Source: Candidatus Woesearchaeota archaeon
Lineage (GTDB): Archaea > Nanobdellota > Nanobdellia > Woesearchaeales > JABIAG01
Reading direction: 5' to 3'
DNA length: 64,000 nucleotides
Assembly: GCA_018653365.1 (NCBI GenBank)
Contig: JABIAG010000001.1
Coordinates: 326,951-390,950, forward strand
The notes under the pieces: generated by a model
Databases searched by the model: none
What the model was told of the DNA's origin: nothing
What the model saw: only the letters and a program-made list of their open reading frames with translations
Translations under genes and position numbers: made by a program
Shown here: in pieces, positions 23,258-56,323 of the stretch
How the letters are laid out: each line of letters opens with the position of its first letter
How positions within the stretch are numbered: position 1 is the stretch's first letter

Positions 23258-23353
23258 GCGGGCCCCACGAGATTCATGTCATCACTTCACTTCGTTTCGT
23301 TCTGGACGAATCTCTAAGTCCCTTAAAAGAATTTGGCGGGCCCCACGAGATTC
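23258..23353. repeat. 18-bp perfect direct repeat GCGGGCCCCACGAGATTC (copies at 23258-23275 and 23336-23353); the second copy is the 3' end of tRNA-Lys
   Basis: Both copies read directly from the sequence. att-core-like duplication of a tRNA 3' end, with 78-bp spacing. Confidence 0.7.
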
Positions 23354-23426
23354 GAACTCGCAACCTTCCGATTTCTTTTTTTAAAATTAAGAGTCGGATG
23401 CTCTAACCAGATTGAGCTAGAGGCCC
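23334..23426 (-). tRNA. tRNA-Lys (anticodon CUU) with an intron of about 15 nt at the canonical 37/38 position; CCA encoded
   Basis: Reverse complement folds as acceptor GGGCCUC/GGGGCCC, D-stem GCUC/GAGC, anticodon stem UCCGA/UCGGA with loop CUCUUAA interrupted by AUUUUAAAAAAAGAA, T-arm GCGAG-UUCGAAU-CUCGU, then GCCA. Confidence 0.8.
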
Positions 23427-23690: not shown

Positions 23691-24137
23691 ATGCGATGCC
23701 CATACTGTTTAAGTGAAAATACGAAAGTTGTAGATAAAAGAGATAGTGAAAACTTTACTAAAAGAAGAAGAGAATGTCTAAAATGCAAAAAGAGATTTAC
23801 AACACACGAACGAGTAGAAAGTGTTGATATGATTGTAGTGAAAAAAGCGGGCGAAAGAGAACGTTACGATCGAGACAAAATAAAACGAGGATTAATTAGA
23901 GCATGCGAAAAAAGACAAATTACGCTGGAACAAATTGATGATACTTTAGATAAAATAGAAACCGAATTAAGAAAATCAAACTCTACAGAAATACCCTCTT
24001 CCAAAGTCGGTAATGTAGTAATCAAATATTTAAAAAGATTAGATAAAGTAGCATACATACGATTCGCATCAGTTTACAAAGATTTCAAAGATGTAGAAGA
24101 ATTTCAAGAAGAACTAAAAACACTATTAAAGAGGTAG
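23691..24137 (+). CDS. nrdR: transcriptional repressor NrdR (zinc ribbon + ATP-cone)
   Basis: N-terminal MRCPYC...CLKC zinc ribbon, followed by an ATP-cone. 148 aa. Confidence 0.85.
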   Translation: MRCPYCLSENTKVVDKRDSENFTKRRRECLKCKKRFTTHERVESVDMIVVKKAGERERYDRDKIKRGLIRACEKRQITLEQIDDTLDKIETELRKSNSTEIPSSKVGNVVIKYLKRLDKVAYIRFASVYKDFKDVEEFQEELKTLLKR

Positions 24138-24144
24138 AGAAAAA

Positions 24145-27100
24145 ATGGCACCAGCACCACTAACAGTTGTAAAAAGAAAAAAACCCTGGGAAACAGAAAC
24201 TCGGGAAGAGGGTTATGATTCTGAAAGAATAATAGTTGCAATGCAATGCTCATTTCATGAAAAAGGAAAACAGGTTTCTGAAGACCAATTAAGAACAATG
24301 CTTCCAGCAATAGAAACAAGGTTAAAACCTACTAGAGCAGGAAAGGTGCACCGAGCTGCAATAGATCGAGCAGTAGTGGCGGTATTAAATGAATCTATGC
24401 ATGAAGAGGTGGCAGCGGAATATAAAAATTATGCAGAAACAAGATTAAAAGAATTACGAAGAATTAAAATCAAACCAGATGCAAAAGGATCAAACGCAAC
24501 AGATGCAATGTTATTAATTGAGAGTGCATCAAGTGGTACAGCATCACCTTTTGATAAGCATGCCATCTCAAAATATTTAAGAAGATCTGGCGCAGAAATG
24601 CCTGAACACCTAATTAAGAGCGTGGCAAGCGCGGTAGAAACCGATGTTCGAGAATGGATTAATGATGTTAAGGAAGATGGAGAAGTACTAGAATTAACTA
24701 CATCTGAAATACATGCACTTGCAACAGCAGAACTAATTAAACATGGAGTAAATCCTCAAGAACTTTTTGCTTCAAGAAACTTTGTGGTATCAAGAGAAAA
24801 TATAGATATGTTGATGGGCAGCAAATCTAATGAAAATGGAAATGTCAATTCAAACAATCCAGAAGCAGTTAATCTAGAAATTGCTGAATGGGTATTAAAA
24901 CGATGGGCACTGAGTTCCATATTTGAAAAAGATGTACGAACCGCACACGATGCTGGAGCAATGCATGTACATGATCTTGGGTATCCTCATAGGGTGTACT
25001 GTTCAGGACATTCACTAGAATATATAAAAAAATACGGACTAAGAGACCTACAAAACTTATCAACAAGATCATCTCCTCCAAAACACGCAATAACCTTAGT
25101 TGGACACACATCAACATTCTTGGCATCAATGCAAGCATATTATGCAGGAGCGTTAGGGATGGCTTATGTGAATCTAGCTTTTGCACCATTTCTAGAAGGT
25201 ATGTCGAGAACAAATGTTGGAAGAGTAAAAGAGGAAGTATTGGCCGCTCTTGTAGGGGATCAGAGTTTGCATGGACGATTATCAAGCTATCTTGGTGCTG
25301 CTGAAGATTGGAAAAGAGTTTCTGGAGAGTTAGCTAATCGAAGTGTATCTGATTCAGATTTAGAAACAATAGTGGGTTCGGTTTCAACAAAATTAGAGGG
25401 TAAACCAGAACTAGAACAATTTATGACTTTAGTTAATGATTATCGAGACATGCGAAGACAGGCAAAAGAACTGAATGCAATGTTAACAGACCCAACTCTT
25501 GTTGGAAGTTTAATGGAAGATATTCTTGAACGATTTGAGGGCAATGACGTGTTATCAGACGAATTCCAACGATTAATGGTACAATATACTGACATGAAAC
25601 AAATAGCGCAAAATTTTGTTTTTACACTATCACAATGCGCATTCTCTAGAGGAAGTCAAACAATATTCACTGATGCAAACTTACATACTGGAGTGCCAAC
25701 TGCACTGAAAGATATACCTATAGTAGTTCCAGGGGGAAGATATAGATTAATAGATAAAGAAACTGGAGAGACTGAAGATTTGCGAGCAAGAAAAGAACCA
25801 ACAAGTAAAGATGGGTTCATATATACTGATTCCGAAGGAAATGTATTCTTAGATGGTGAAGGAAATTTTAATTACAAACTTGCAAAAGAACAAGGAAGAC
25901 GATTTGTAACTTATGGAGATTATGAAGAGACCTCACAAGAATTTCTAGAAGCATTACTTGATGTTTACATGGAGGGAGATGAAATAGGAATGATGTTCCC
26001 ATTCCCAAAATGTGACGTACATGTAGATGCCAATACCTTCAAACACGAAAGACAAAGACAACTATTAAGAAAAACATGTGAAGTGGCAGCTAAAAATTCA
26101 AGCGCATACTTTATCTTTGACAGAGATGCAGTAACCCTTGCTGCATGTTGCAGATTAAAAACTGCAGTAGACCCAAAAGCATTAGAACATCCCGAATCAT
26201 TAAGATTTTGTGGATTCCAAAACGTAACCATAAACGTTCCACAAGCATCATACCGAGCAGCAGAAGCTGGAAATTTAAATCTTGATGGAATTATTGATGA
26301 AGTTTTAGAAACCATGGAAACAGCACTTCAAGCTCATATCCAAAAAAGAGTAAAAACAGAAGAATTAATGCAACCAGGAGGACCATTGCACCAAATTGGA
26401 AAACCAAGCATGGATGGAAATCCTTATGTTGACTTAGATAAAGCAACATACATAGTTGGAATGATTGGAGTAAATGACGCTGTCAAATTATTGACTGATT
26501 CTGAATTGCATGAAAATGAGGAATCAATGCAGGCAGGATTAGAGATCATTGCTGCAATGTATCAAAAAGCAAAAGAGATGAGTGAAAGAACAGGATGGAA
26601 AATTTCCCTAGAAGAAAGTCCTGCAGAAAGTGCAGCAAGAAACTTAGCATTAAGAGACTTACGTCATCCTGTTTACGGAAAATACGCAAAACAGGTAATA
26701 CAAGGAACTGAAGAGGACCCATACTATACAAACTCTGTACACCTAAGAGCAGATGCAAAAGATGTAGGCCCAATAGAAAGAATACAAAAACAATCAATGT
26801 TCCACCCAGTAATAGAATCTGGGGCAATTATCCATTTATTCACGGGCGAAGCAGATATAGATCCAGATGCATTATATGATTTAGTACAAAATATTTACGA
26901 AAATACACAATGTGCACAAATAACTGTATCTGGAACACATTCATTCTGTCCAGGATGTGGAACCCAAACAAGAGGAGAAGCGTTTGAATGTCCAAGATGT
27001 GGGACAGAAACAGATGTAATGCAAAAAGTTGTTGGATACAATTCTAAAATGGTAAATTGGAATGGATCAAAACGAAGAGAATCAGAGGCAAGAGGAAGAG

Positions 27101-27591
27101 GAAGTTATGCTGCAGATGCATCTGAATGTATTGCAAAAGGAGACGATCTTGCTGAAGCATTAATACCCGGACAACCCGCAGTAAAAGCAGTAGTATATGG
27201 AATAAAACATCACCATCATTGTGACTGGTGTGAAGACCTGAATGATGCAGTAACCAAATTGGTAGGAAACAATTACAAAGGAAAAGTAGATGTAGAATTT
27301 GTAGATGTAACTGCACCAGGAGTAGAGGGAAGACAAAACTTAGCAAGAGCAATGCGAGCAGGTATAAATATGGGTACTACTCCCGGAGTGGGATTCGAAT
27401 ATAATACTGAAGGAATTCCTAGGCCCGTAGATACCGTGCGACCTTTAGAAACAGAAAGTCTTGTACGACAAAATAGAGAAACTGGACACTTAGATGTGAA
27501 ATATAAATTTCTAGACAAAGCCGGAGCTCCAAAAGTAAGAAAAGCACTTGACGCGGTTCTTGCAGAAGCAGAAAGATATCTCACAACATAA
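24145..27591 (+). CDS. nrdD: anaerobic ribonucleoside-triphosphate reductase (class III, NrdD) with a C-terminal thioredoxin/NrdH-like extension
   Basis: Zn site CPGCG...CPRCG. Glycyl-radical motif KVVGYNSKMVNWNGSKRRE (RxxGY...N.GK..E). An extra C-terminal domain of about 180 aa carries HHHHCDWC, then a TPGV cis-Pro-like motif. Confidence 0.8.
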   Translation: MAPAPLTVVKRKKPWETETREEGYDSERIIVAMQCSFHEKGKQVSEDQLRTMLPAIETRLKPTRAGKVHRAAIDRAVVAVLNESMHEEVAAEYKNYAETRLKELRRIKIKPDAKGSNATDAMLLIESASSGTASPFDKHAISKYLRRSGAEMPEHLIKSVASAVETDVREWINDVKEDGEVLELTTSEIHALATAELIKHGVNPQELFASRNFVVSRENIDMLMGSKSNENGNVNSNNPEAVNLEIAEWVLKRWALSSIFEKDVRTAHDAGAMHVHDLGYPHRVYCSGHSLEYIKKYGLRDLQNLSTRSSPPKHAITLVGHTSTFLASMQAYYAGALGMAYVNLAFAPFLEGMSRTNVGRVKEEVLAALVGDQSLHGRLSSYLGAAEDWKRVSGELANRSVSDSDLETIVGSVSTKLEGKPELEQFMTLVNDYRDMRRQAKELNAMLTDPTLVGSLMEDILERFEGNDVLSDEFQRLMVQYTDMKQIAQNFVFTLSQCAFSRGSQTIFTDANLHTGVPTALKDIPIVVPGGRYRLIDKETGETEDLRARKEPTSKDGFIYTDSEGNVFLDGEGNFNYKLAKEQGRRFVTYGDYEETSQEFLEALLDVYMEGDEIGMMFPFPKCDVHVDANTFKHERQRQLLRKTCEVAAKNSSAYFIFDRDAVTLAACCRLKTAVDPKALEHPESLRFCGFQNVTINVPQASYRAAEAGNLNLDGIIDEVLETMETALQAHIQKRVKTEELMQPGGPLHQIGKPSMDGNPYVDLDKATYIVGMIGVNDAVKLLTDSELHENEESMQAGLEIIAAMYQKAKEMSERTGWKISLEESPAESAARNLALRDLRHPVYGKYAKQVIQGTEEDPYYTNSVHLRADAKDVGPIERIQKQSMFHPVIESGAIIHLFTGEADIDPDALYDLVQNIYENTQCAQITVSGTHSFCPGCGTQTRGEAFECPRCGTETDVMQKVVGYNSKMVNWNGSKRRESEARGRGSYAADASECIAKGDDLAEALIPGQPAVKAVVYGIKHHHHCDWCEDLNDAVTKLVGNNYKGKVDVEFVDVTAPGVEGRQNLARAMRAGINMGTTPGVGFEYNTEGIPRPVDTVRPLETESLVRQNRETGHLDVKYKFLDKAGAPKVRKALDAVLAEAERYLTT

Positions 27592-27592
27592 A

Positions 27593-28315
27593 ATGAATTT
27601 TGGTAACATATCTTCATCAGTGGATTTAGTCAGTTTCAGTAATGCAGAAGAACCCACAACAGTTCTATTTTATCAGGGATGCAATTTTGGGTGCGGGTAT
27701 TGTCATAATAGCAACTTATGGCATGCCGAGGACGATACGCTAACTGAAAAAGGATTAAACGCAGTACTTTCAACTGCAAGAAGCAGATGGGTAAAGCTCG
27801 TGAACGTTTCTGGGGGAGAGCCAACAGAACAATTTGGTAATTTATGGGATCTAACTGGTTATTTGAAACAACAAGGTTTTAAAGTAAAACTTGATACAAA
27901 CGGAAGTCATCCCGAAGTTCTAGAAACCTTACTTGAATATGCTTTAGTAGATTATGCTGCGATGGACATTAAAGGAACACTGGCACAGTATCCAGAAATA
28001 ACTGGGTTTAGTGATGTTGAAAAAATAAGAAACTCAATAGAGTTAGTACAATTTATGGGCAATCAAGGATTTGGTTACGAATTCAGAACAACAGCAGTTC
28101 CTGGCATTCATGGTGAATCGGAAATAAGGGAGATTGGGGAGATGTTACGCGGATCAAGAAGATATGCAATACAACAATTCAGACCTGATCTAGATGGGGG
28201 ATGCTTAAACCCCCAATTTTGCAAGAAAGAATCCTATCCTGGTGAAACATTAAGAGAGTTTGCAGAAGTAGTAAAAGACGATTTTGAAACAGTAATAGTT
28301 AGAGCAAGAGATTAG
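27593..28315 (+). CDS. nrdG: anaerobic RNR activating enzyme NrdG (radical SAM)
   Basis: CNFGCGYC (CxxxCxxC) motif. Start taken at the ATG immediately after the nrdD stop (the ORF track start 27548 overlaps nrdD). Confidence 0.85.
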   Translation: MNFGNISSSVDLVSFSNAEEPTTVLFYQGCNFGCGYCHNSNLWHAEDDTLTEKGLNAVLSTARSRWVKLVNVSGGEPTEQFGNLWDLTGYLKQQGFKVKLDTNGSHPEVLETLLEYALVDYAAMDIKGTLAQYPEITGFSDVEKIRNSIELVQFMGNQGFGYEFRTTAVPGIHGESEIREIGEMLRGSRRYAIQQFRPDLDGGCLNPQFCKKESYPGETLREFAEVVKDDFETVIVRARD

Positions 28316-31466: not shown

Positions 31467-31505
31467 ACATAAATCTTTAAAAAAAGGTCTTTGTTACTAC
31501 TTTAA

Positions 31506-33209
31506 ATGGGGGATGAATCTTTGTCGGGAATGAACGCTTCAGTACAACAAACATATATTTCTTTAGATGAAAGAGCAGAACAAGTCTATCATAGTATTCT
31601 AGAAGGAAGTCCCGAGTTTGCATTGTGGATAACAACTCCAAAACAAATAACCTTTAATGATGAACAAAAGATGCAGATATTATTCTCAAATGCGTTAACA
31701 GCAGAAATGGCTTTGAAACGTTATGAGGAAGCATTAAGTGCAGCAGCAAGAAGAACAGGGAACTTTTCAGGAATGGATGTGCCGAGAGTTAGTAAGCTAT
31801 GTTATGATGCAATAGCACCAAAAGCTGATGAAACAGTTCCTGAGCCAAAACCTCGAAGAAAAAGTGAAATAAGTGCAGAAGGCCATTATGCTAACACCGA
31901 TTTTGAAGCGGCATTAGCAAAACTAACTGTGAGAGGTGCAATAGACCGATCAGAATACTTTCGTGGTGATTATAATGGAAGAGCATTTGCAAAGGGTATG
32001 GCCGTAATAGATAGTTTAAGATCAAAAAAAGCCATACGAAGAGCACTAAGAATCGTTGGCGATAACAGTTCAGGAAAAACAACTCTTCTAATGTACCTTG
32101 CGACCGTAGCAATAGAACATGGATTGACTCCTTTTTATTTAGATTTAGTGTACTTAGCAGATCAATATGATGCAATGGCAAAAAGTCCAACTAAGCCAAC
32201 AAAAGAAGACTGGGCAAAGGTGAATTACAGTCCACAAGCACAAGCAGCAGATCTGATCTTATTAGATGGTTGGGAAGGAATAATGAAAAAAGGGGATCCT
32301 AAAACAAATCAGGGGGCTCAAAGAAAAGCCCTTGAACTAACTAATGCAGGTTTAAGTAGAGGAAAAGGAGTTGTAATGGCATATTCCGGAGATGTGGCAA
32401 GCTGGGTTAAAATGATTGAAGGATTAAAAATTTTGGGAACCCAACAACCTGATGAACATTTTAGACATCTGTCAGCAAGAATGTCACGAGCAAGTCGCGC
32501 TGAATTACGTTATCCTTCTGTAGAAGAGAGACCTGATTTTATAAAAGATGCAATCCTTTCACTTACTGCAAGATGTAACGGACAATTAGATGAAGTTGCA
32601 GCACATTTGGACGGGATTTTAGGAAGAAATGCTGATCCTGGAACAATCATGGCAAATGTGGAAGATCTAGTGGACGAAGCAGATGATGAAGATTGTGAAA
32701 TAGACTTAGAATTTATCAAAGCAATATTGGGTGATGATCCAATCTTGGTGGAAGTCCCAGGACAAAGAGAGGATGCTATAAATGCATTAGTATTTAGAAC
32801 AGCTTTAGACGCTATAGGTTTACCAAAAAGTTATGTGACTGGGAAAGGACGAGAACCTACAAGAGTGAGAGCAAGAAATATGTTGTTAGCAGCAAGAAAA
32901 GCCTATACTGGTATGACTACTGCCGAACTAGTAGATGATTTACCAATAGGAAGAGCAACAGTAACACATAGTTTGAATAGTGTGGAAGAACAAGTGGGGG
33001 CAAATGACTTAGATGGATTCTTAACTCACATAGGTGCAACTCTTTTCGCAGCAGGATATAAAGATGTAGAACGAAAACCAATAACTCCTGGAAAAAGAGA
33101 TAAAAAACAACCAGCTACACAAACAAAACCAGTTAATGCAGGGTCTGGCGATCTTGGATTGAGTGGAAATGTTTCAGATGTTAAGGGAGGAAGTATTTTT
33201 CGTCGTTAA
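31506..33209 (+). CDS. P-loop NTPase with DnaA domain-IV-like C-terminal HTH (DnaA-like protein); composition-atypical
   Basis: Walker A GDNSSGKTTLLMY. Walker B-like LILLDGWEG. C-terminal GKGREPTRVRARNMLLAARKAYTGMTTAELVDDLPIGRATVTHSLNSVEEQ aligns with DnaA domain IV ([48 protein letters not shown]). Confidence 0.5.
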   Translation: MGDESLSGMNASVQQTYISLDERAEQVYHSILEGSPEFALWITTPKQITFNDEQKMQILFSNALTAEMALKRYEEALSAAARRTGNFSGMDVPRVSKLCYDAIAPKADETVPEPKPRRKSEISAEGHYANTDFEAALAKLTVRGAIDRSEYFRGDYNGRAFAKGMAVIDSLRSKKAIRRALRIVGDNSSGKTTLLMYLATVAIEHGLTPFYLDLVYLADQYDAMAKSPTKPTKEDWAKVNYSPQAQAADLILLDGWEGIMKKGDPKTNQGAQRKALELTNAGLSRGKGVVMAYSGDVASWVKMIEGLKILGTQQPDEHFRHLSARMSRASRAELRYPSVEERPDFIKDAILSLTARCNGQLDEVAAHLDGILGRNADPGTIMANVEDLVDEADDEDCEIDLEFIKAILGDDPILVEVPGQREDAINALVFRTALDAIGLPKSYVTGKGREPTRVRARNMLLAARKAYTGMTTAELVDDLPIGRATVTHSLNSVEEQVGANDLDGFLTHIGATLFAAGYKDVERKPITPGKRDKKQPATQTKPVNAGSGDLGLSGNVSDVKGGSIFRR

Positions 33210-33264
33210 TCAAAAAGTTTACCAATTAGTTAAATTTAAATAAATTCAATATATTTTCTAATTT

Positions 33265-34233
33265 ATGTATACGAAATATCTTTTTTTAGTGATGTTATTG
33301 CTTTGTATAAGTTTTGTTACAGCAGCTGAGAACGCCAATGTATTTCTTAGTTTGAAAGAGGCAACAACTAATATCGATATTAACAAAGTGGTTGTTTACA
33401 TAGAAGAAAATGAACAGGTCATGAATAAATATGTTCCTAAAGGAGAAATTCTAAAATTAAGTCTAGAAAATGGCGAACACCATGTTACAATCAAAGTTGA
33501 TGACCTAACAACCGAAGGAATAGACTATTTTGCTAAAACACAATTAACAGTACAAACAAGTCTGATTGAGGGAGTGTTTCTTTACTCTGTAGGTTCATTA
33601 AGAGGAATAGTAAAAGACGAACTTGATAATGTAATACCAAATGCTGAAATAAAAATCGAATGCGGTTCAGATTATGGATTAAACTTACCTACAAAAGCCG
33701 ATTCTTTTGGCACATTTAATACCGAAGTACCAATCGGGAACTGTAAGGTTTTTGCCCGGTCTGAAGAAGCAGTTAGCATGCAAGAATTTGAGGTAAGTAA
33801 GGGAGATGTGATTGATCTAGAACTAAATTTGGACAAAGTAAAAAAAGAAAAATCAAACCTGCTTGCCTGGAGTTTGATTATCTTGCTTGTAGTTATAATT
33901 GTTATCTTTCGGTGGAAACCGATTAAGAAAAAAACAAAAAAACCTGAAACGATCATTAAAAAAGAGGTAAAATTAGTAGAACGATCAAAAGATGTATACA
34001 ACACCTTAAAAGAAAAAGAAAAAGAAATAATTGACTTCATATTAGAGAGTAAGGGAAGTACAACCCAAGCAAAAATACACTATGGCACTGGAATTCCAAA
34101 AGCATCATTATTTAGATATGTACAATCATTAGAACAAAAAAATGTTATTCAAACACAAAAAATTGGAAAGGTAAAAAAAATCAGGTTTACCGACTGGTTT
34201 TTAGGTAAAAACACTTCTGAAAACGAACAATAG
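33265..34233 (+). CDS. single-pass membrane protein: signal peptide, extracellular CarboxypepD_reg-like beta domain, TM, cytoplasmic C-terminal winged-HTH (putative transmembrane transcription regulator)
   Basis: Signal peptide. TM LLAWSLIILLVVIIVIF. C-terminal segment ...QAKIHYGTGIPKASLFRYVQSLEQKNVIQTQKIGKVKKIRF, typical of wHTH. Confidence 0.5.
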   Translation: MYTKYLFLVMLLLCISFVTAAENANVFLSLKEATTNIDINKVVVYIEENEQVMNKYVPKGEILKLSLENGEHHVTIKVDDLTTEGIDYFAKTQLTVQTSLIEGVFLYSVGSLRGIVKDELDNVIPNAEIKIECGSDYGLNLPTKADSFGTFNTEVPIGNCKVFARSEEAVSMQEFEVSKGDVIDLELNLDKVKKEKSNLLAWSLIILLVVIIVIFRWKPIKKKTKKPETIIKKEVKLVERSKDVYNTLKEKEKEIIDFILESKGSTTQAKIHYGTGIPKASLFRYVQSLEQKNVIQTQKIGKVKKIRFTDWFLGKNTSENEQ

Positions 34234-34280
34234 TTCCACATCGTTCCAATCGTTCCACTCAACCTATTTATATAGTTCCA
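34233..34280 (+). promoter_or_regulatory. four direct GTTCCA(C) repeats (34233, 34243, 34252, 34275) flanking a TTTATATA TATA box; candidate operator/iteron array
   Basis: Read directly. Spacings of 10, 9 and 23 bp. The TATA box at 34266-34273 lies between repeats 3 and 4. Confidence 0.45.
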
Positions 34281-34304
34281 CCTTTCTAATTTTTATTAAA
34301 AATT

Positions 34305-36218
34305 GTGAGGTTAATCAAAATGAAAAAAATATTTGGTATAATGTTGTTGATGATGCTTGTACTCTCTATGAGCGCAATTGCAGATACAACTATAAAAGAA
34401 AAAAAATTACCTGCTTTTGTTGTAGCAATAGCGGAGGATGCACCTGCTTCAGATAGTGTATTGGGAACAAACATAGCAGTAGAACTAAAAAAAGCAGGAT
34501 ATGGAGATCTGCCTGTAAGTACATTTAAACTATTTAAAGATGTACAAAGAGGAGGCTTAGATGGCCGAGTAATCTTAGTATTGTATAAAGGTGAAGCAAA
34601 AATTATTGTTGGTTCAGATCTTGAATCCAGTGGTATATTGTTTGCTACAGACTTAGCAACAATTCTTAAATACTACTCTGTCGATGTTGGACAGATAATG
34701 TTGAGTAAAGAAACCTCTTCTGATCTTATATCTTTATTTGAAGAGGGTCACGTAGAGGATGTAATCATAACTAAAGAAACAGTTAAATGCGTATTTGAGG
34801 ATTCAAGTGAAAAACAAGAATGTTACTTGGATGAACAAAACGAAATTGGTTGCAGTGGCGAAGAAACATGCACTGTGGAATCAATTGGTGTTAAAGGAAC
34901 AAAACAAGTATGGAAAAGTACTTGTGGTGGTTATGCATATACTGTGCTTGATGGAGATAATGAATACGCAGAATTCGACTGTGGAATTTCAATTCCAGAA
35001 AAGATTGATCTAGTAATTAAAGAACTTGAGTTTGTTAGAAAAAGTGATAAATTGGCAACAATAGAATTTGATGTTGTTAATGCTGGACTAGCAGATGTTA
35101 AAGGATCTTTTGCAATGGCAGTATATATTAATGGAGAATTAACAACACATACTGCATATCATGGATATGATAATGAGTTAGATGCTGGAGAAAGTATGCA
35201 TAGATCATTAAGCAATTATTACTGGTTGAATAATGGAGAATACGAAATAACCGTTGTTGTAGATCGTTTTGAAGGGGGAGAAAAGGATAATCCTGTTTTT
35301 GATGGATTCTATGATAACATGGTTAAGGAATCTAACGAAGCAAACAATAAAGCAACAATAAGCGTGAACAATAAAATAGTTCATCATACGTTTGATCTAA
35401 CAAACTATCCTGAACTATTTATTAAAAATGGAAAGTTCAATGGATATATTGTTGTAGGAGACAATGCCCCTGCATCAGATGTGATCAGTGCAATTGATAT
35501 TGCTCAAAGCTTGCAACTTTATGATGCTGGCGAGGGCCAAATTGATGTTGGCGCAGCAAAATTAGCAAGTGAAATATCTGATCCCTATGCTATGAATGTT
35601 ATTTCTGTAGGAAATGCATGCACTAATGCTGTTTCCGCTCGATTATTGGGAGATAAAAAAATCGAAGCGATTAATCGTTGTTCTCAACACTTTCAGAAAG
35701 GAGAGAGTACAATAAGATTATTCAACAATAATGGAAACGCACAATTACTTGTGGCGGGATATGGTGAGGCAGATACAAGATATGCAGCGAAAATGTTGGT
35801 TAATTACAAAGAGTATGATCTGGAAGGAATGGAAGTTGAATTCAATACTATTTTTCCTGTTGAGGATAGTGTGGAAATCGAAATCTTAAATATTCCAGAA
35901 CCAACACTTTATCCAACAACTCCGGGAGAAGTTTCACCTTCATTACCTGTAACTGCAACATGTAATAATGGCTGTTTACTTGAAGATACTTGCTTGCCTT
36001 TCGGAACCAGATTAGTTGATAATGAGGTTGCTAAGTACTGCGCAATAACAAAAGAACTTGTTGAACAACAAGCAAAAGAAGCACAGTGTCAAAACAACTA
36101 TGAGTGTTCAACCAACCAGTGTAACGACGGAGCTTGTGGAAGTCTATCTGAAGAGTTAGAAGAAACAAGAGGTATGTTGAAACAGGTAATGAATTGGCTT
36201 TCAGGCTGGTTTAACTAA
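34305..36218 (+). CDS. secreted surface protein with CARDB-like domain and Cys-rich C-terminus
   Basis: Signal peptide. ESNEANN motif (CARDB E.NE.NN). C-terminal cluster of about 10 Cys. Confidence 0.5.
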   Translation: MRLIKMKKIFGIMLLMMLVLSMSAIADTTIKEKKLPAFVVAIAEDAPASDSVLGTNIAVELKKAGYGDLPVSTFKLFKDVQRGGLDGRVILVLYKGEAKIIVGSDLESSGILFATDLATILKYYSVDVGQIMLSKETSSDLISLFEEGHVEDVIITKETVKCVFEDSSEKQECYLDEQNEIGCSGEETCTVESIGVKGTKQVWKSTCGGYAYTVLDGDNEYAEFDCGISIPEKIDLVIKELEFVRKSDKLATIEFDVVNAGLADVKGSFAMAVYINGELTTHTAYHGYDNELDAGESMHRSLSNYYWLNNGEYEITVVVDRFEGGEKDNPVFDGFYDNMVKESNEANNKATISVNNKIVHHTFDLTNYPELFIKNGKFNGYIVVGDNAPASDVISAIDIAQSLQLYDAGEGQIDVGAAKLASEISDPYAMNVISVGNACTNAVSARLLGDKKIEAINRCSQHFQKGESTIRLFNNNGNAQLLVAGYGEADTRYAAKMLVNYKEYDLEGMEVEFNTIFPVEDSVEIEILNIPEPTLYPTTPGEVSPSLPVTATCNNGCLLEDTCLPFGTRLVDNEVAKYCAITKELVEQQAKEAQCQNNYECSTNQCNDGACGSLSEELEETRGMLKQVMNWLSGWFN

Positions 36219-36247: not shown

Positions 36248-36313
36248 TTCTACATTTTAAGCATAAAGTTTATTGAGGAAAACTTTATAAATAGATTAAG
36301 GCTACTTTAGGGT

Positions 36314-37740: not shown

Positions 37741-40700
37741 ATGAAGTGGGGGATAATATTAGTTTTATTGATTTCTTTAACTACCTTAGTTCTAGCTTCA
37801 GATAATGCAGGTAATGAAGAACTCCATGACGTAATAATCATGTTTGAAGACGGGGAAACTCTTGATTTACACTCGGCTACAACTCGAAGTGGATATTCAG
37901 TACAAACCCTTAATGAGGTAGTGCCTGGAAAAGAAATCGAACATGTATTTACTTCGTTTAATGGAATAAGCGGAAAATTCACAACTTCAGAATTAGAAAA
38001 TATTCGAAAAAATAAAAAAGTAAAAGCAATAGAAGAAACACAAGCATATCAAGCAACACTGGATGTTTCCGTACCGTTAATGAATTCAACTTTGTTTCAA
38101 AATGTATCATTTAATGGAACTAAATTAAACGGAACTGGCGTAACAGTATGTATTTTAGATACAGGAATCGATGACACTCATGCAGCACTGAATGCTTCAT
38201 TGATACCTGATGCTGGAAATTCAAGGGGGTTTGTAGGTTGGGACTATGTAAATGATGATGACTACCCTTATGACGATCAGGTTTTTAACACTTATGGTGT
38301 TCCCACTGTTGGAGGCCATGGAACACATGTGGCGGGAATAGTGGGTTCAAGAGATGCAACCTATCCTGGAATCGCTCCAGGTGTTAATATAATCCCCATA
38401 AAAGTGTTAAACGCATCTGGCGGAACAACAGTCACTCCTTTCTTAGCGGGAATAGAATGGTGTGTGAACAATGCAACACGTTTTAATATAAGTGTTATTT
38501 CAATAAGTATTGGAGGATCAACATATATTTCTGTATGTGATGGTGAGTCTATCCCTTCTTTGTTTGTTCCGGTAATAAATGAAGCAGTGTCTAAAAATAT
38601 CACGGTAATGGTCTCTGCAGGAAATGATTATAGTGCGTTGGGTTTGACTGATCCCGCATGTATAGCTAATGCAACGTCAGTGGGAAGAACTAATGATGAT
38701 GATACAATAAGTTCAAATTCAAAAACCGCTTCTTTTTTAGATTTTTTAGCACCCGGAACTGGAATTATATCCACAAAAAGAACAGGCGGATTTACAAGTA
38801 AAGATGGAACCTCAATGTCAACTCCTCATGTAGCAGCAACAGTAGCACTATTACAACAATACTATCATAAATATTATGGAAGATTTACAGACACAGAAAC
38901 AATCAAAGCAGCACTAAATGCATCTGGACCAAAAATAAATGATACCAGATTAGGCTTAGATCAAGAATTTACTAGAGTTGATGTATACGGTGCTTATGAA
39001 GCATTAATTACTGATGCACCTGTGTTAGCATTTATAGATCCAACACCTGCAAATGGTTCTGGGTTACTAACTTTGGATTATACTTTTAACGTATCAATAA
39101 ATGATACCTCTCATAACATATCTTATTGTTATTTGACCTTTAATTCAACACGATATGTGATGGGAGTAAATGACACAACAGTACAAAATGCAACTTGTAA
39201 TGTAAGTGTGAATCTAGGAATGCCAGAAAAAGGCAATTATTCATATTATGTAACTGGATTAGATGATAAAGGTGAATTGGGCATATCTGAAACCTGGCAA
39301 GTAGAAGTACTCAATACCCCTCCAACAATAAATAATGTTTCCGAATACGGAAATTTAAGTAGTAAAGAAACAGAATTATTAACACTAACAGTTAACGTAT
39401 CAGACTTTAATGGTGACACGTTAACATTTAATTGGTTATTAAATGAAACCAGTATAGCAACAACACAAAACCTAAGTCACACTTTTAATCATTCCCAAGC
39501 AGCAACATATTGGAATCTAACCCTAAACGTAAGCGATGGAGAAAATTATACAACTCAGGTGTGGAACGTATCAGTAAATAACACAAACCGTTTACCTGTA
39601 TTCAACAATCCAACTTCTTATGTTGTGAACGAATCTCAAATGATCAATATAACTTTAAACGTAACAGACAATGATGATGACGACACCCTAACTTATGGAA
39701 CAAATGCCTCACTGTTCACACAGAACGTCAATGATTTTAACTGGACAACAAACTATACTGATGCCGGAACATATTCAATACTGTTCAATGTGACTGATGG
39801 AACTGTGGTTGTAAATCAAACCGTAACACTTACGGTTAATGACAAAGCAAGACTTAACGCAAACTCATCAAATATAACCTCCTCAGTAGAACTTAACATT
39901 TTTGTTAATGGAAGTTTAAATGATACTGAACTAACTGAGGTTATTGCACTGAATTTAACAGATACATCAAATAATACATTAATAACTTTTGACTGGAACT
40001 TTAGTAGTGCAAATATGAGTGTAGATATAGACTATGTTGCAGGAAGTGGAACCTTGATTGTAAGAGGACTAGATCTAAGTTCACAAAGTGTTACAAAAAC
40101 AGTTTACGTAAACAAATCTACCTCTACTTTTGATTACGTTTGTGTAGTTGATAAAGAGGTTGACTCAATAGCAACTTTATCATCAGACTGTTCTAATGCT
40201 AACGAAACAAACGTACCCTGTCCCGGAACTAATGGCGCCTATTCTTGCGCTGTAGAAGGATCATATTTCAAAGTATCTGGACTAAATCACTCAGCAATAA
40301 AAGGCATGACAACACCTGCTGTAGGCGATCCGGGAGGAAGTGGAACGGGGGGCAGTGGTGGAGGAGATGATAGCGATGATGATGTACTTGTTGTATGTCA
40401 AGAAGATTGGATTTGTGAAGGATTTAAAGAATGTATTGATGAAAAGTTAACAAGAAGATGTTTTGATGGCAATAATTGTGGAACAACCCTACGACAACCC
40501 TTGTTAGAAAAAGAGTGTGTAGAAGAAACTTATCAAACACAAGAACCTGAAGTTGAACCAACGCCAGAAGTAGTTCCAGAAGTAGTACCTGAAGTAAAAA
40601 AATCAGGATTTCAACAAGTCATAAACAATATTGGGAACTGGTTTAAAAATCTAAATAAAGAAAAAACAGATACAGAAGAGGTAGACTCAAATAAGTTTAA

Positions 40701-40788
40701 CTTAGAAGGAAAAGGACAAAGAATATTACTATTCTTAATAGGAATATTTGCATTTTTATTAGTAATGCTTATCGTTTGGAAACGATAA
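37741..40788 (+). CDS. cell-surface subtilisin-like serine protease (S8) with a long glycosylated beta-rich stalk and C-terminal TM anchor
   Basis: Catalytic triad motifs VCILDTGID, HGTHVAGIV, GTSMSTPHVAA. Dozens of N-x-S/T sequons. PEV repeat linker, then a C-terminal TM. Confidence 0.85.
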   Translation: MKWGIILVLLISLTTLVLASDNAGNEELHDVIIMFEDGETLDLHSATTRSGYSVQTLNEVVPGKEIEHVFTSFNGISGKFTTSELENIRKNKKVKAIEETQAYQATLDVSVPLMNSTLFQNVSFNGTKLNGTGVTVCILDTGIDDTHAALNASLIPDAGNSRGFVGWDYVNDDDYPYDDQVFNTYGVPTVGGHGTHVAGIVGSRDATYPGIAPGVNIIPIKVLNASGGTTVTPFLAGIEWCVNNATRFNISVISISIGGSTYISVCDGESIPSLFVPVINEAVSKNITVMVSAGNDYSALGLTDPACIANATSVGRTNDDDTISSNSKTASFLDFLAPGTGIISTKRTGGFTSKDGTSMSTPHVAATVALLQQYYHKYYGRFTDTETIKAALNASGPKINDTRLGLDQEFTRVDVYGAYEALITDAPVLAFIDPTPANGSGLLTLDYTFNVSINDTSHNISYCYLTFNSTRYVMGVNDTTVQNATCNVSVNLGMPEKGNYSYYVTGLDDKGELGISETWQVEVLNTPPTINNVSEYGNLSSKETELLTLTVNVSDFNGDTLTFNWLLNETSIATTQNLSHTFNHSQAATYWNLTLNVSDGENYTTQVWNVSVNNTNRLPVFNNPTSYVVNESQMINITLNVTDNDDDDTLTYGTNASLFTQNVNDFNWTTNYTDAGTYSILFNVTDGTVVVNQTVTLTVNDKARLNANSSNITSSVELNIFVNGSLNDTELTEVIALNLTDTSNNTLITFDWNFSSANMSVDIDYVAGSGTLIVRGLDLSSQSVTKTVYVNKSTSTFDYVCVVDKEVDSIATLSSDCSNANETNVPCPGTNGAYSCAVEGSYFKVSGLNHSAIKGMTTPAVGDPGGSGTGGSGGGDDSDDDVLVVCQEDWICEGFKECIDEKLTRRCFDGNNCGTTLRQPLLEKECVEETYQTQEPEVEPTPEVVPEVVPEVKKSGFQQVINNIGNWFKNLNKEKTDTEEVDSNKFNLEGKGQRILLFLIGIFAFLLVMLIVWKR

Positions 40789-42661: not shown

Positions 42662-43216
42662 ATGACTACTACAGACGCTGATGCACAAGTTCGTTTTCCA
42701 GGTATGGGAATAGCAAGTGAAGAAAGACTTGCGAGAACGGCTGAACTTTTTGGCGAAGTATTCTTAAATTATTGTGCAGGACTTGTTGGAGATGAACAGG
42801 CTTCTGATCTATATCAAGATGTTTTCCAAACAGCAGTAGAACAGACTGATAGTCTAGGCCCAGATCAAGACGCGCTAATTTGGCTTCGTAATATGGCTCG
42901 AAACAGAGCAAGAGGTTATCATAAATCTCGTGAAATGCAGCTAAAACGTTTTGGCGAAGCAGATGAAGCTGATCTTTCAGATGAGGGATTAAGTCCGCGT
43001 GATATGGCACAAAGATCAGACTTACATAACGCAGTAAGAGCACAAGTAGATGCTTTACAACCCACTTACCAAGAAGCAATTAGACTAACACTTTTAGAAG
43101 GTCATTCACAAAGACGGGCAGCAGAACTGGCAGGTTGTTCTCCAAGTACAATTCAATACAGAGTAGGAAAAGCAAAAGAGGCATTAAGAACCAGTTTAGG
43201 TCAAATTCTAGATTAA
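42662..43216 (+). CDS. ECF-type sigma-70 family protein (regions 2 and 4); composition-atypical
   Basis: Region 2-like ASDLYQDVFQTAV...WLRNMARNRARGYHKSR. Region 4-like YQEAIRLTLLEGHSQRRAAELAGCSPSTIQYRVGKAKEALR. Confidence 0.65.
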   Translation: MTTTDADAQVRFPGMGIASEERLARTAELFGEVFLNYCAGLVGDEQASDLYQDVFQTAVEQTDSLGPDQDALIWLRNMARNRARGYHKSREMQLKRFGEADEADLSDEGLSPRDMAQRSDLHNAVRAQVDALQPTYQEAIRLTLLEGHSQRRAAELAGCSPSTIQYRVGKAKEALRTSLGQILD

Positions 43217-50451: not shown

Positions 50452-50685
50452 ATGAAAAGAACTTACGACAAAATACGGAAATCAATCCTTGCAGCAATTG
50501 ATGGACCGCAAAAAATAATAAATGAAATTGCTAGAGTATCTAAGGTTAATTGGAAAACAGTACAAAGACATCTAACCTATTTTAAAGGAATGGGATTCAT
50601 AGAAGAAACATTCTCTTCACCGTATGTAAGAATATTTGAAATAACCGAAAAAGGAAAACAGGAGTTAAAAGAATGGAAATCCTAA
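50452..50685 (+). CDS. small winged-helix DNA-binding protein
   Basis: 77 aa. wHTH-like ...IINEIARVSKVNWKTVQRHLTYFKGMGFIEE. Overlaps the downstream glycogen synthase by 13 nt. Confidence 0.5.
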   Translation: MKRTYDKIRKSILAAIDGPQKIINEIARVSKVNWKTVQRHLTYFKGMGFIEETFSSPYVRIFEITEKGKQELKEWKS

Positions 50686-51875
50686 TGTTTGGATGGGAAT
50701 TTCCTCCAATGAAATCAGGGGGGTTAGGAACTGCTTGTTATGATCTATGTAAGGGTCTGTTTAAACAAGGAACCAAGGTAACTTTTGTAGTTCCAAGACT
50801 GCCCAAAACAATAAAAAGTAACTTTGTAAAATTATTAGGCGCAAATCAATATGCTAAATTAACTGAAGTGGATTCAATACTAACACCGTACATGACATCT
50901 AACCAATATTTGGATGTGTACGATAATCTTGATGTTGCAACAAAACAAAACTATGGGAAAAATCTTTTAGCTGAGGTAAAAAGATATACTCAAGCTGCAA
51001 TAAAGATAACTGAAAATGAAAATTTTGACATAATACATGTACATGACTGGATGACCTATGAAGCAGGACAGATCGCAAAAGAAAAATCAGGAAAGTCACT
51101 AGTTGCACATATTCATGCAACAGAGTTTGATCGAACAGGGGGCAATCCTAACATGGAAATTTCCCACAAAGAATATTTGGGATTGAATGCAGCAGATATG
51201 ATAATTGCAAACTCGGAATACACTAAAGATAATGTAATCAAAAACTATAAGGTCGATGCAGATAAGTTACGAGTTGTACACTGGGGAATAGCTGAAGACA
51301 GCCCAAGCTATCATTTGAATGCAGAATCTCCATTTAAAGACAGTAAAGTTGTTTTATTTTTAGGTAGAGTGACGATACAAAAAGGACCTGACTATTTTGT
51401 TGATATGGCAGAAAAAGTAAAAAAATACGTACCAAATGTTAAGTTTGTTTTTGCAGGAGATGGAGACATGTTTCCAAAAATTGTAGATCAGGTAATGGAA
51501 CGAGATCTAGCTGAGAATTTCGTATTCACTGGATTCTTAAGGGGAGAAGACGTACATAAAGCATTTCAAATGGCAGATTTATACGCAATGCCCTCTGTAT
51601 CTGAACCGTTTGGGTTAGTAGCACTAGAATCAATAAAAAACGGAACTCCTGTTTTGCTCTCAAAACAATCAGGAGTTGCAGAAGTATTAACCAATGCCTT
51701 TAAAGTTAATTTTTGGGATGTAGATGAAATGGCAAATAAAATAGTTTCATTTCTTAACCATCCTGCATTAAGTCATGATCTAAAAGCAAACACAATTGAA
51801 GAAGCAAAAGGATTTAATTTAGATGACCCTGCCAAAAAATGTTTGGACTGTTATGACGAGGTAAAAAAATGGTAG
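50673..51875 (+). CDS. glgA: archaeal-type glycogen synthase (GT5, Pyrococcus GS-like)
   Basis: FGWEFPPMKSGGLGTA (KxGGL motif) and SEPFGLVALESI match the P. abyssi glycogen synthase. Confidence 0.65.
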   Translation: MEILMFGWEFPPMKSGGLGTACYDLCKGLFKQGTKVTFVVPRLPKTIKSNFVKLLGANQYAKLTEVDSILTPYMTSNQYLDVYDNLDVATKQNYGKNLLAEVKRYTQAAIKITENENFDIIHVHDWMTYEAGQIAKEKSGKSLVAHIHATEFDRTGGNPNMEISHKEYLGLNAADMIIANSEYTKDNVIKNYKVDADKLRVVHWGIAEDSPSYHLNAESPFKDSKVVLFLGRVTIQKGPDYFVDMAEKVKKYVPNVKFVFAGDGDMFPKIVDQVMERDLAENFVFTGFLRGEDVHKAFQMADLYAMPSVSEPFGLVALESIKNGTPVLLSKQSGVAEVLTNAFKVNFWDVDEMANKIVSFLNHPALSHDLKANTIEEAKGFNLDDPAKKCLDCYDEVKKW

Positions 51876-53086: not shown

Positions 53087-53114
53087 TGAGAAAAATAAAA
53101 AGAATAAAAAAGAG

Positions 53115-53573
53115 GTGAAAATGGCAAAGAAAACAGCAAAAAAAACTGCCAAAAAGAGTTCTAAGAAGAAAGTAGTCCGAAAACCAAAGAAAGCAGCAAA
53201 AATTGTAAAAAAGGTAAAAGTAAAACTTGTTAAGAAAAAAGTGGCAGCTAAAAAAGCTAAAACTCGAGTTGCAGTAACCGTAACAAGAAAAAGATTAGGA
53301 ACTGCACCCGAAGAATACCATTTTGTATTAAATGACGGGAATCGACTGAAAAACATACAGGAATTAACTGATGCTCTAGAAACAATGAGTGAAGATGTAT
53401 TCAAATATCACGCAAATGAATTCAAAAACGATTTTGCAAATTGGATCAGTGATGTGTTTGAGGAAAGCGATTTAGCAGAAGAAATAAAAAAAGCAAAGAG
53501 CAGAATAGAAACAAGAATAAAACTCTTGCAACGATTAGTAGATGAAGTAGTAAAACAAGGAAGAAAAAAATAA
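53115..53573 (+). CDS. protein with histone-H1-like lysine-rich N-terminal tail plus a helical C-terminal domain; hypothetical
   Basis: The first 55 aa are more than 50% Lys/Ala (AKKTAKKTAKK...). Sits inside the glycogen cluster. Confidence 0.4.
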   Translation: MKMAKKTAKKTAKKSSKKKVVRKPKKAAKIVKKVKVKLVKKKVAAKKAKTRVAVTVTRKRLGTAPEEYHFVLNDGNRLKNIQELTDALETMSEDVFKYHANEFKNDFANWISDVFEESDLAEEIKKAKSRIETRIKLLQRLVDEVVKQGRKK

Positions 53574-53585
53574 AAAAAGAGGGTT

Positions 53586-56308: not shown

Positions 56309-56323
56309 TTTTTTGGGGGAATT

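Follow-up and report, generated by a model that had tools for sequence, protein, structure and literature searches.

A gene encoding a divergent member of the DnaA family was found in the 64,000-nucleotide stretch of Candidatus Woesearchaeota DNA analysed here (contig JABIAG010000001.1; the window). The gene, recognised as an open reading frame (ORF) and by homology, is present at positions 31506..33209 of the plus strand and encodes a protein of 567 amino acids (P0001; MBT3304560.1). DnaA is regarded as the hallmark replication initiator of bacteria, and Orc1/Cdc6 as the archaeal and eukaryotic one. In our analysis the ORF is a true, full-length and divergent DnaA homologue, and its product is a new, highly derived archaeal branch of the known DnaA family. 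The gene is followed by one for a membrane-anchored winged helix-turn-helix (wHTH) protein, by direct repeats of the unit AT[CA]GTTCCA (ATMGTTCCA) and by a gene for a secreted S-layer-like protein. The reading that we favour, with somewhat better than even confidence, is that two independent features lie side by side, namely the derived archaeal DnaA-family protein and the operator repeats of the wHTH/S-layer cassette. An earlier reading made from the letters of this DNA (the sequence-only reading) had noticed the Walker A and Walker B motifs of the 567-amino-acid ORF, both of which are readable directly at 31506-33209, and had linked the protein to the repeats.

Homology of the protein with DnaA

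The 567-amino-acid protein alone showed only P-loop noise when it was compared with Pfam, NCBIfam and PDB by phmmer, and no match to TIGR00362 or to Bac_DnaA (PF00308) was found at the E-value limits used. Its C-terminus alone matched Bac_DnaA_C (PF08299) with E=0.075 and 13.5 bits, against a cutoff of 31.5, and a TFIIB repeat slightly better, with E=0.0023 and 18.3 bits, which is also sub-threshold. Nothing significant was obtained by BLASTP against an approximate sequence of domain IV of Escherichia coli DnaA. A word-indexed homologue search returned only the protein itself, and with the family alignment it returned ABC-F noise. P0001 was thus below every curated DnaA threshold. Its match to DnaA is significant because relatives and profiles bridge the distance, not by virtue of the protein alone.

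Only eight proteins were found at E≤1e-3 in an exhaustive phmmer search of 1.84 billion representative proteins, and the more canonical members of the family (P0003 and P0006/P0014) were matched directly at 7e-13 to 2e-4. TIGR00362 DnaA matched six of the eight family members (best 2.1e-30), followed by Bac_DnaA_C with five (best 5.2e-18) and Pfam DnaA_N with two (best E=6.8e-5). TIGR02928, by which membership of Orc1/Cdc6 was judged, matched one of the eight (1.2e-3). The family profile matched the DnaA of Bacillus subtilis (8btg) at 7.5e-35 and that of Thermotoga maritima (2z4r) at 2e-21, the latter with profile positions 25-504 aligned to chain residues 3-429. Domain I of B. subtilis DnaA (4tps_B) was matched at 3.2e-6, and the domain IV structures of E. 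coli (1j1v) and Mycobacterium tuberculosis (3pvp) at 2.3e-11 and 1.2e-8, respectively. A profile made of P0001 and its orthologue P0002 only, chosen so that the result does not lean on the more canonical relatives, was aligned by hhalign with four canonical DnaAs at a probability of 94.4% and E=9.4e-8 over 394 columns (query 37-498, template 24-438).

The structure model gave the same assignment. In a Foldseek search of PDB with the AlphaFold2 (AF2) model, the ten best matches were all DnaA, and FtsH, Orc1/Cdc6 and Hda were three to five orders of magnitude worse. The DnaA match was 1e-10, whereas the Orc1/Cdc6 matches were 1e-6 (1w5t) and 1.5e-6 (2qby) and that of Hda was 3e-6 (3bos). Orc1/Cdc6 is the initiator that would be expected in an archaeon and belongs to the initiator clade of AAA+ proteins. 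It has a C-terminal winged-helix domain and is devoid of DnaA_N, whereas the C-terminal domain of P0001 is all-helical and of the DnaA type. Hda, DnaC, DnaI and IstB have a related AAA+ core. Hda matched P0001 with E=0.018 and a relative with 2.4e-7, and the matches of IstB and DnaI reached 3e-6 and 6.5e-7, respectively. However, these proteins lack DnaA domains I and IV, both of which are present in P0001, and their scores are orders of magnitude below those of DnaA. Bacterial DnaA clearly surpassed all others both in sequence profiles and in fold, so that in profile, profile-profile and fold searches alike the comparison of DnaA with Hda, DnaC, IstB and ORC was decided for DnaA. As the sequence-only reading had pointed out, the C-terminus resembles domain IV of DnaA. 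This similarity is real and significant through relatives and profiles, although it is insignificant for the protein alone. At the family level the domain did not score better as a generic helix-turn-helix than as DnaA_C (Bac_DnaA_C 5.2e-18; 1j1v 2.3e-11). We rejected the TFIIB-cyclin reading of the C-terminus (18.3 bits), as relatives and profiles place the domain in Bac_DnaA_C. An anti-phage reading from a weak DS8 match (3e-4) was also rejected, as the match covered the P-loop region only and P0001 had no PADLOC match.

Domain organisation of the protein and its gene

The protein was found to contain the four parts of DnaA in collinear order, namely domain I, a flexible linker, the AAA+ domain III and a helical helix-turn-helix domain IV, and the AF2 model added a disordered tail after them. 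The mean predicted local distance difference test score (pLDDT) of the model was 73, with block means mostly of 75-90 inside domains. The domain I-like N-terminal alpha/beta domain, recognised by AF2, DnaA_N and the family profile, covers amino acids 20-104 (31563..31817; these and the following coordinates are on the plus strand). It is built as helix-helix-strand-strand-helix, and its block-mean pLDDT was 69-86, mostly about 80. A disordered linker (pLDDT <50) of amino acids 108-151 (31827..31958), the equivalent of DnaA domain II, was variable and gap-rich in the family alignment. The AAA+ domain, supported by alignments, AF2 and Foldseek matches to 8bv3 and 2z4r, extends over amino acids 155-410 (31968..32735), followed by the domain IV-like helical DNA-binding domain of amino acids 420-515 (32763..33050), which was defined by alignments and the family profile. 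The Lys/Gly-rich C-terminal tail of amino acids 529-567 (33090..33206; pLDDT <50) is absent from canonical DnaAs and partly conserved in the P0002 orthologue.

A TATA-like box, TTTAAAAAAA, can be read in the sequence at 31476..31485 on the plus strand, about 26 nucleotides 5' of the ATG, and TTTAAATAAT was present at an equal distance from the start of the P0002 gene. The box suggests that the DnaA-like gene has its own promoter and that the leader is short or absent. The gaps between the gene and its neighbours are 39 and 55 nucleotides. Its GC content was 0.39, whereas that of the flanking DNA was about 0.33-0.35 (0.30-0.39 in bins across the window). The identical protein sequence was found on 31 contigs of several assemblies, and contigs longer than 1 Mb were present in 7 collection blocks. 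NCBI annotates the protein as hypothetical and IMG as 'chromosomal replication initiation ATPase DnaA'; this IMG COG label is the sole existing annotation that hints at DnaA.

Conserved and substituted motifs

Motifs were mapped in an alignment of the family with canonical DnaAs that were retrieved through P0003. Including these canonical DnaAs, G185, G190 and K191 were invariant, and T192 and R325 were nearly invariant. P0001 contained the Walker A motif GDNSSGKT (G185-T192, nucleotides 32058-32081) and the Walker B strand LILLD, which ends in the Asp D254 (nucleotides 32253-32267); both are readable in the sequence. The box VII arginine finger R325 was also kept, followed by the P-x-x-E-x-R motif. 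In domain IV, R457 (nucleotides 32874-32876) was invariant across all aligned sequences. It corresponds to R399 of E. coli, and the equivalent of H439 is present as well; the E. coli numbers R399, D433, H434, T435 and H439 are those that we take to apply in structure 1J1V.

Other motifs of P0001 were substituted. The Walker B D-D was replaced by D-G-W-E (LILLD-G-W-E), so that only the first Asp, D254, remains. The sensor I T-S-D was replaced by Y-S-G (A-Y-S-G), where the Asp is changed to Gly, and the sensor II N-V-R-x-L-E-G by N-A-D-P-G-T-I-M-A, where the Arg is gone. The domain IV signature G-R-D-H-T-T-V was replaced by P-I-G-R-A-T-V in P0001 and by I-S-S-Q-M-V in its orthologue P0002, and the DnaA-box-reading residues D433, H434 and T435 are G, R and A in P0001. 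The (R/K)DHTT motif was retained in P0003 and in P0006/P0014, whereas it was lost in P0001 and P0002. The former share with P0001 the architecture and the insertions, and differ from it in that they keep (R/K)DHTT and pass as Bac_DnaA_C. These family-specific insertions, which are shared by members, are present after Walker B and before box VII.

Substitution rate of the gene

The DnaA-like gene was compared with its counterpart for P0002 in a syntenic genome. Its rate of nonsynonymous substitution (dN) was 0.50 and that of synonymous substitution (dS) was 1.14, with a dN/dS of about 0.44. In ten neighbouring genes of the two syntenic genomes dN ranged between 0.03 and 0.22 and dN/dS between 0.04 and 0.17, at similar dS. 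The dN of the DnaA-like gene was about 3.5 times that of its neighbours, and its protein identity between the two genomes was 45-46%, whereas that of the neighbours was 69-95%. On these rates the gene is under selection, but far less tightly than the housekeeping genes are, and such fast evolution would not be expected of an essential initiator.

A high dN, together with the loss of canonical catalytic and DNA-reading residues and the absence of matches to curated models, could also indicate that the gene is a decaying, functionless relic of horizontal transfer, in which case the repeats would be an unrelated promoter feature or due to chance. We regard such a relic as very unlikely. The dN/dS is below 1, and intact ORFs of 500-567 amino acids are kept in AT-rich genomes in at least 8 lineages. 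The lineages within the family are only 20-25% identical, with the ATP- and DNA-binding residues invariant, and the invariant positions coincide with Walker A, the Asp of Walker B and the Arg that would contact DNA. Moreover, the gene's own TATA box is at a conserved position, AF2 folds the domains with confidence, and the repeat cluster is statistically unusual.

Distribution and genomic setting of the family

The host of the gene is archaeal, as the sequence-only reading had assumed; NCBI labels it Candidatus Woesearchaeota, and the neighbouring genes encode S17e, Alba, eIF-1A, diphthamide synthase and eRF1. The window was found to contain genes for arginyl-tRNA synthetase (ArgRS), arginase, S17e, Alba, SppA and diphthamide synthase in the region of the DnaA-like gene, and one for eRF1 elsewhere. 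The P0002 locus contained ArgRS, arginase, the DnaA-like gene, S17e, Alba, SppA and a subtilase in synteny with the window. The DnaA-like gene is thus present at the same arginase/S17e position in two genomes whose neighbouring genes are about 79% identical. P0014 was flanked by SpoIIM/STT3 and Spt5-L11, P0007 was found near S27e, S24e, Spt4 and Rpb7, and P0006 carries a Pacearchaeota label. P0006/P0014, like P0001, are in archaeal gene neighbourhoods, and no conserved partner gene was shared by the family loci. The contigs of P0003 and P0004 (L005 and L007) were not counted as archaeal. The family is a chromosomal gene of Woesearchaeota- and Pacearchaeota-type DPANN archaea, the readable contexts all being among archaeal housekeeping genes.

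The P0004 contig L007 contained Elp3, a YlqF-like GTPase and an MTAP-APRT fusion, and a stand-alone GGDEF diguanylate cyclase (8e-43) was present at 4616-5227 on its minus strand.

The sequence-only reading had called a DnaA homologue unexpected in an archaeon, and a survey of 208 complete Nanobdellota genomes agrees with it, as Orc1/Cdc6 was found in 206 genomes and dnaA in none (2026 preprint). The DnaA family in these archaea is rare and overlooked. Since no outgroup other than canonical bacterial DnaAs can be detected, bacteria are its most likely source.

Membrane protein, repeats and S-layer-like gene

The gene next to the DnaA-like gene, at 33265..34233 on the plus strand, encodes a single-pass membrane protein of 322 amino acids, as judged from Pfam and hydropathy. 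The protein contained a signal or transmembrane segment at amino acids 1-24, an extracellular carboxypeptidase-regulatory-like beta domain, a transmembrane helix at about amino acids 199-217 (nucleotides ~33859-33915, by hydropathy), a Lys-rich cytoplasmic linker and a C-terminal wHTH at amino acids 250-306 (nucleotides 34012-34182). In Pfam, DUF7343 was above threshold (1e-6, 28.9 bits against a cutoff of 27.6), followed by CarboxypepD_reg (5.8e-6), HTH_IclR (1.5e-4) and TrmB (1.3e-3). With DUF7343 and the transmembrane segments, the protein is the membrane-anchored wHTH protein that the sequence-only reading had described.

The next gene, at 34320..36218 on the plus strand, encodes a secreted S-layer/CARDB protein of 632 amino acids according to Pfam, TIGR01564 and the public gene call. 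It matched S_layer_C at 9.9e-13, CARDB at 6.5e-9 and TIGR01564 S_layer_MJ at 8.2e-10, and hydropathy indicated the signal peptide MKKIFGIMLLMMLVLSMSAIA; a secreted CARDB protein had been predicted here, and these matches bear it out. The GTG start at 34305 that had been proposed is less likely than the ATG at 34320, which is used in the public gene call and is preceded by GAGGT at 34307-34311, 8 nucleotides ahead.

The repeats were found within the promoter-bearing gap of about 70-86 nucleotides between these two genes. The copies of the unit ATMGTTCCA begin at 34230, 34240, 34249 and 34272 and are 10, 9 and 23 nucleotides apart; the ending is GTTCCAC in three of them and GTTCCAA in the other. 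Three copies lie head-to-tail at 34230..34257 on the plus strand, the first on the stop codon of the wHTH gene and the third ending 7 nucleotides before the archaeal TATA box TATTTATATA (34265..34274, plus strand). The box was read from the sequence, with the S17e promoter GAAAACTTTATAAA for comparison, and is the predicted promoter element of the S-layer-like gene, from which transcription would start at about 34295-34300. The fourth copy, ATAGTTCCA (34272..34280, plus strand), overlaps the last 3 nucleotides of TATTTATATA. The 6 nucleotides upstream of the box (TCAACC) are a poor transcription factor B recognition element (BRE), and the third repeat abuts the BRE position. With three sites ending upstream of the TATA box and one overlapping its 3' edge, the geometry would place the three repeats at an activator-type position, upstream of BRE and TATA, and the fourth at a repressor-type position.

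The repeat cluster was the only 6-mer cluster of the window with ≥4 copies in 50 nucleotides, and any such cluster was present in 3.3% of simulated 64-kb sequences. The 9-mer ATMGTTCCA occurred 6 times in the window against 1.04 expected, and 4 of the 6 are inside the cluster. The four GTTCCA(C) direct repeats around a TATA box, first noticed in the sequence-only reading, are therefore real and non-random. GTTCCAC occurred 12 times against 4.5 expected; its other copies are coding-internal, four of them on the minus strand of the subtilase gene (37741-40788). A scan of IMG/VR for GTTCCA-N3-4 triplets gave at least 120 matches, mostly of exactly 24 nucleotides (9-nucleotide period), which are presumably coding tandem repeats, and the scan was uninformative.

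Relation between the DnaA-like protein and the repeats

S17e follows the DnaA-like gene after 140 nucleotides in the syntenic relative, which lacks the whole block made up of the wHTH gene, the S-layer gene and the repeats. No comparable repeat array was found at any other family locus, and a motif-array search near the family genes gave coding repeats only. The repeats are read as the operator of the wHTH/S-layer cassette because the relative keeps the DnaA-like gene without the cassette and the repeats.

Homologues of the wHTH protein were found in another Woesearchaeote lineage (L012-L015), with no DnaA-like gene nearby and flanked by a different direct repeat, TTATTCTTRC. The wHTH protein is favoured as binder because the repeat-TATA-repeat layout accompanies the wHTH gene, with the sequence changing along with the recognition helix. 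It is most likely the binder of the ATMGTTCCA repeats, though putative on sequence grounds, and its regulation of the S-layer-like gene is plausible.

Alternatively, the GTTCCA(C) array could be a diverged form of the DnaA box that is read by the DnaA-like protein itself, which would then activate or repress transcription of the S-layer-like gene; bacterial DnaA can act as a transcription factor. The head-to-tail 9-mers with a period of about 10 bp resemble DnaA-box arrays, the first copy contains TCCACA, the DnaA-like gene lies on the same strand, 1 kb upstream, and the invariant equivalent of R399 suggests that DNA binding is retained. However, the orthologous locus of the 46%-identical P0002 has the DnaA-like gene without the repeats and both downstream genes, and comparable arrays are missing from the other family loci. 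The TCCACA core of the DnaA box was noted in the repeats by the sequence-only reading; this holds in full for the first copy, and not for the other three. With D433, H434 and T435 replaced, similarity to the DnaA box has no predictive weight, and the wHTH gene terminates exactly on the first repeat. We consider this alternative unlikely, and the link between the DnaA-like protein and the repeats, as first proposed, was not supported.

Some further elements were observed near the wHTH genes and at the site of the insertion. In the sister genome, a tandem duplication of about 57 nucleotides, CATTTCATTTCGTTCTGGGCATAAAGTTTTTGCTAGAAAACTTTATA, is present in two copies (L002 11669-11785, L003 4194-4310) and duplicates the S17e promoter. 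It sits where the window has the wHTH and S-layer insertion, and the single-copy S17e promoter of the window (36263-36292) is recognisably the same; the duplication may be a scar of the wHTH/S-layer indel. Around the L012 wHTH homologue, TTATTCTT(G/A)C is present four times (3800-3900, 5110-5175), with two copies upstream, one of them inverted, and the downstream pair brackets a TATA-like box straight after the stop codon. From this layout, the members of that wHTH family may regulate their own genes. The wHTH homologues are followed on their 3' side by a conserved element of about 70 nucleotides (L012 5110-5316; L013 3139-3359; L014; L015), with its own TTTATAAA box, a GATGTG...CACATC hairpin and a T-run (GGCTATCTTATTTCAAAGTTGGATGTGAGAACCAAAGTTCCRCATCTGCTTTGCATTTTTTG). 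The element is conserved between lineages with differing flanks and could be a small RNA or a terminator. An 11-nucleotide identity, AGTTCCACATC, found 3' of the L012 wHTH homologue was rejected as a conserved site, as it varies in L013 and lies inside the hairpin-like conserved element.

Search for a replication origin or a mobile element

DnaA boxes were scanned in the 64-kb window and in family loci of 2-21 kb. The perfect DnaA box TTATCCACA occurred once in 64 kb against 0.83 expected, which is the chance level, and this copy lies within the DnaA-like gene (31624-31632, minus strand) in codons for ALWIT. No DnaA-box clusters at ≤1 mismatch were found in the window or at any family locus. 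The window contained no large non-coding region (none >660 nucleotides), and no AT-rich non-coding region adjoined any family gene. An orc1/cdc6 gene was found neither in the scan of 20 large ORFs nor in the public calls covering window 21.5-43.2 kb, and the window ORFs scanned included no DnaB helicase, DnaC/DnaI loader or DnaN. The cumulative GC skew rose smoothly over 24-41 kb, with no turning point at 31-35 kb; the GC-skew check for a nearby origin, suggested beforehand, thus showed no inflection at the locus.

The results bear on the possibility that these archaeal chromosomes are replicated with the DnaA-like protein as a working initiator, either primary or secondary. The full architecture would suit such a role, as would the Walker A motif, arginine finger and DNA-binding Arg conserved across a deeply diverged family, and a stable chromosomal gene with conserved synteny and the identical protein on 31 contigs. 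Yet the family genes have neither a box cluster nor an AT-rich non-coding region beside them, the GC skew does not turn, and the gene evolves about 3.5 times faster than its housekeeping neighbours. The family comprises only 8 clusters among the 1.84 billion representatives, Orc1/Cdc6 is present in 206 of the 208 complete Nanobdellota genomes, and the sensor II and Walker B catalytic positions are degenerate in P0001. We hold a working initiator to be quite improbable.

Another possibility is that the locus is the remnant of an integrated plasmid or virus, of which the DnaA-like gene would be the Rep gene and the repeats the iterons or origin. DnaA-like AAA+ proteins are present in archaeal mobile elements, for example SSV1 B251, the GC content of the gene (0.39) is slightly raised, and the wHTH and S-layer genes are an indel relative to the sister genome. 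However, no relatives of the DnaA-like protein were found in the phage, plasmid (tblastn) or IMG/VR collections, and no integrase or att-like context in the public gene calls around the gene; the only tRNA near it is 8 kb off and unrelated. The gene holds the same arginase/S17e position in two genomes, and the repeats lie in a promoter gap rather than in an AT-rich origin. Such a remnant, which the sequence-only reading had offered as an option, is extremely improbable; it would also have to do without mobile-collection relatives, a box cluster, a large non-coding region or, among the ORFs and calls given above, Orc1/Cdc6.

The repeats could also mark an archaeal origin, as ORB-like half-sites (origin recognition boxes) of Orc1/Cdc6. 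The ORB and mini-ORB elements of archaea have a TTCCA...TGGAA dyad, and GTTCCAC is enriched in the window. But all four copies are in the same direction without a TGGAA dyad partner, the promoter gap has no AT-rich unwinding element, no orc1/cdc6 was among the ORFs and calls just given, and the other GTTCCAC copies are coding-internal. This reading is equally far-fetched. A chromosomal, plasmid or viral origin at the DnaA-like locus is not supported by anything that was found.

Predicted function and comparison with known systems

P0001 has the same collinear domain order as bacterial DnaA (TIGR00362; DnaA_N, Bac_DnaA and Bac_DnaA_C; 8btg, 2z4r, 2hcb, 1l8q, 1j1v). It shares with bacterial DnaA the Walker A motif, the Walker B Asp, the arginine finger, P-x-x-E-x-R and the R399 equivalent. 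It differs in its archaeal host, in the changed D-D, sensor I, sensor II and D-H-T, in the family insertions and in the basic disordered tail; unlike that of bacterial DnaA, its gene has no DnaA boxes or oriC nearby and evolves fast. With Walker A and the Mg-binding Asp intact, P0001 probably still binds nucleotide, and with the arginine finger kept it probably still oligomerises. Duplex DNA would probably be bound by domain IV, where the minor-groove Arg R457 (= R399) is invariant. Control of hydrolysis is probably altered, as P0001 lacks the sensor II Arg and the second acidic residue of Walker B, and so probably is DNA specificity, D-H-T being replaced by G-R-A. From these steps, all of them functional predictions, we infer that P0001 is probably a DNA-binding ATPase that was co-opted to regulate transcription or chromatin, and not the main chromosome initiator.

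The ATMGTTCCA repeats would serve the promoter of the S-layer-like gene as operator sites. The membrane wHTH protein as sensor-regulator and the surface protein would form a two-gene cassette, which this genome has and the syntenic relative lacks. ToxR/CadC-type bacterial regulators are membrane-anchored, one-component proteins that bind direct repeats. The 322-amino-acid protein shares with them one transmembrane helix, an extracytoplasmic sensor-like domain, a cytoplasmic winged helix-turn-helix and head-to-tail repeats at the adjacent promoter, whereas the wHTH of the predicted regulator is C-terminal (reversed topology) and of the DUF7343/TrmB/IclR type, not OmpR.

Several points weigh against two independent features of this kind. 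Palindromes, bound by dimers, are the usual targets of wHTH proteins of the TrmB/MarR/IclR type, whereas the repeats here are head-to-tail. DnaA proteins, on the other hand, bind arrays of 9-mers in the same orientation, and GTTCCAC and the DnaA box share TCCAC. The persistence of the family with invariant residues implies a selected function, and this could still be replication. The presence of Orc1/Cdc6 in this genome is deduced from the survey of other Nanobdellota, and the bacterial origin of the family from outgroups and not from a phylogeny.

Allowing for these points, we also considered that a bacterial-type initiator was domesticated in a small DPANN clade and still acts on the chromosome, either at a secondary DnaA-dependent origin beside Orc1/Cdc6 or as an ATP-switched regulator that binds the array, with ATMGTTCCA as its diverged DnaA box. 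We give this rather little credence. If true, it would be the first DnaA-based system operating in Archaea.

A complete collinear DnaA homologue is fixed in these archaeal chromosomes and has been kept long enough for the identity between lineages to fall to 20-25%. The bacterial initiator can evidently pass into another domain of life and be kept there, most probably in a new role, and threshold-based annotation misses such homologues. The protein offers a tractable test of initiator modularity, which concerns the role of a DnaA in a cell presumably without DnaB/DnaC, the sequence bound by the altered domain IV and whether ATP is still a switch. The neighbouring cassette offers a candidate membrane-tethered archaeal transcription regulator with a predicted operator before a surface-protein gene.

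Other features of the window

A bacterial-type NrdR (Zn-ribbon and ATP-cone, 148 amino acids) was found at window 23691-24137, where it heads an anaerobic ribonucleotide reductase operon (nrdD and nrdG; 24145-28315). It was 94.6% identical between the two Woesearchaeote genomes, which is among the most conserved in the region, and it is a second bacterial-style regulator here. Another bacterial-looking helix-turn-helix protein, of 184 amino acids, is encoded by the ORF at 42662-43216 and contains Sigma70_r4_2 and HTH_30 in the public Pfam annotation. The subtilisin-like surface protease at 37741-40788 is 1015 amino acids long and can hardly be aligned with its positional counterpart in the sister genome, the sole BLASTP match covering 21 amino acids, whereas the neighbours are about 80% identical. 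A glycogen/starch metabolism cluster was present at 50673-58033 and contained a GT4/GT5 glycosyltransferase, a GH57 enzyme, a eukaryote-type glycogen synthase (PF05693, 3e-155), a GalT/HIT-like protein and an amylo-alpha-1,6-glucosidase-like protein. The gene encoding tRNA-Lys (CTT) at 23334-23426 on the minus strand was found to be 93 nucleotides long, which is over-long for a plain tRNA and suggests an archaeal-type intron.

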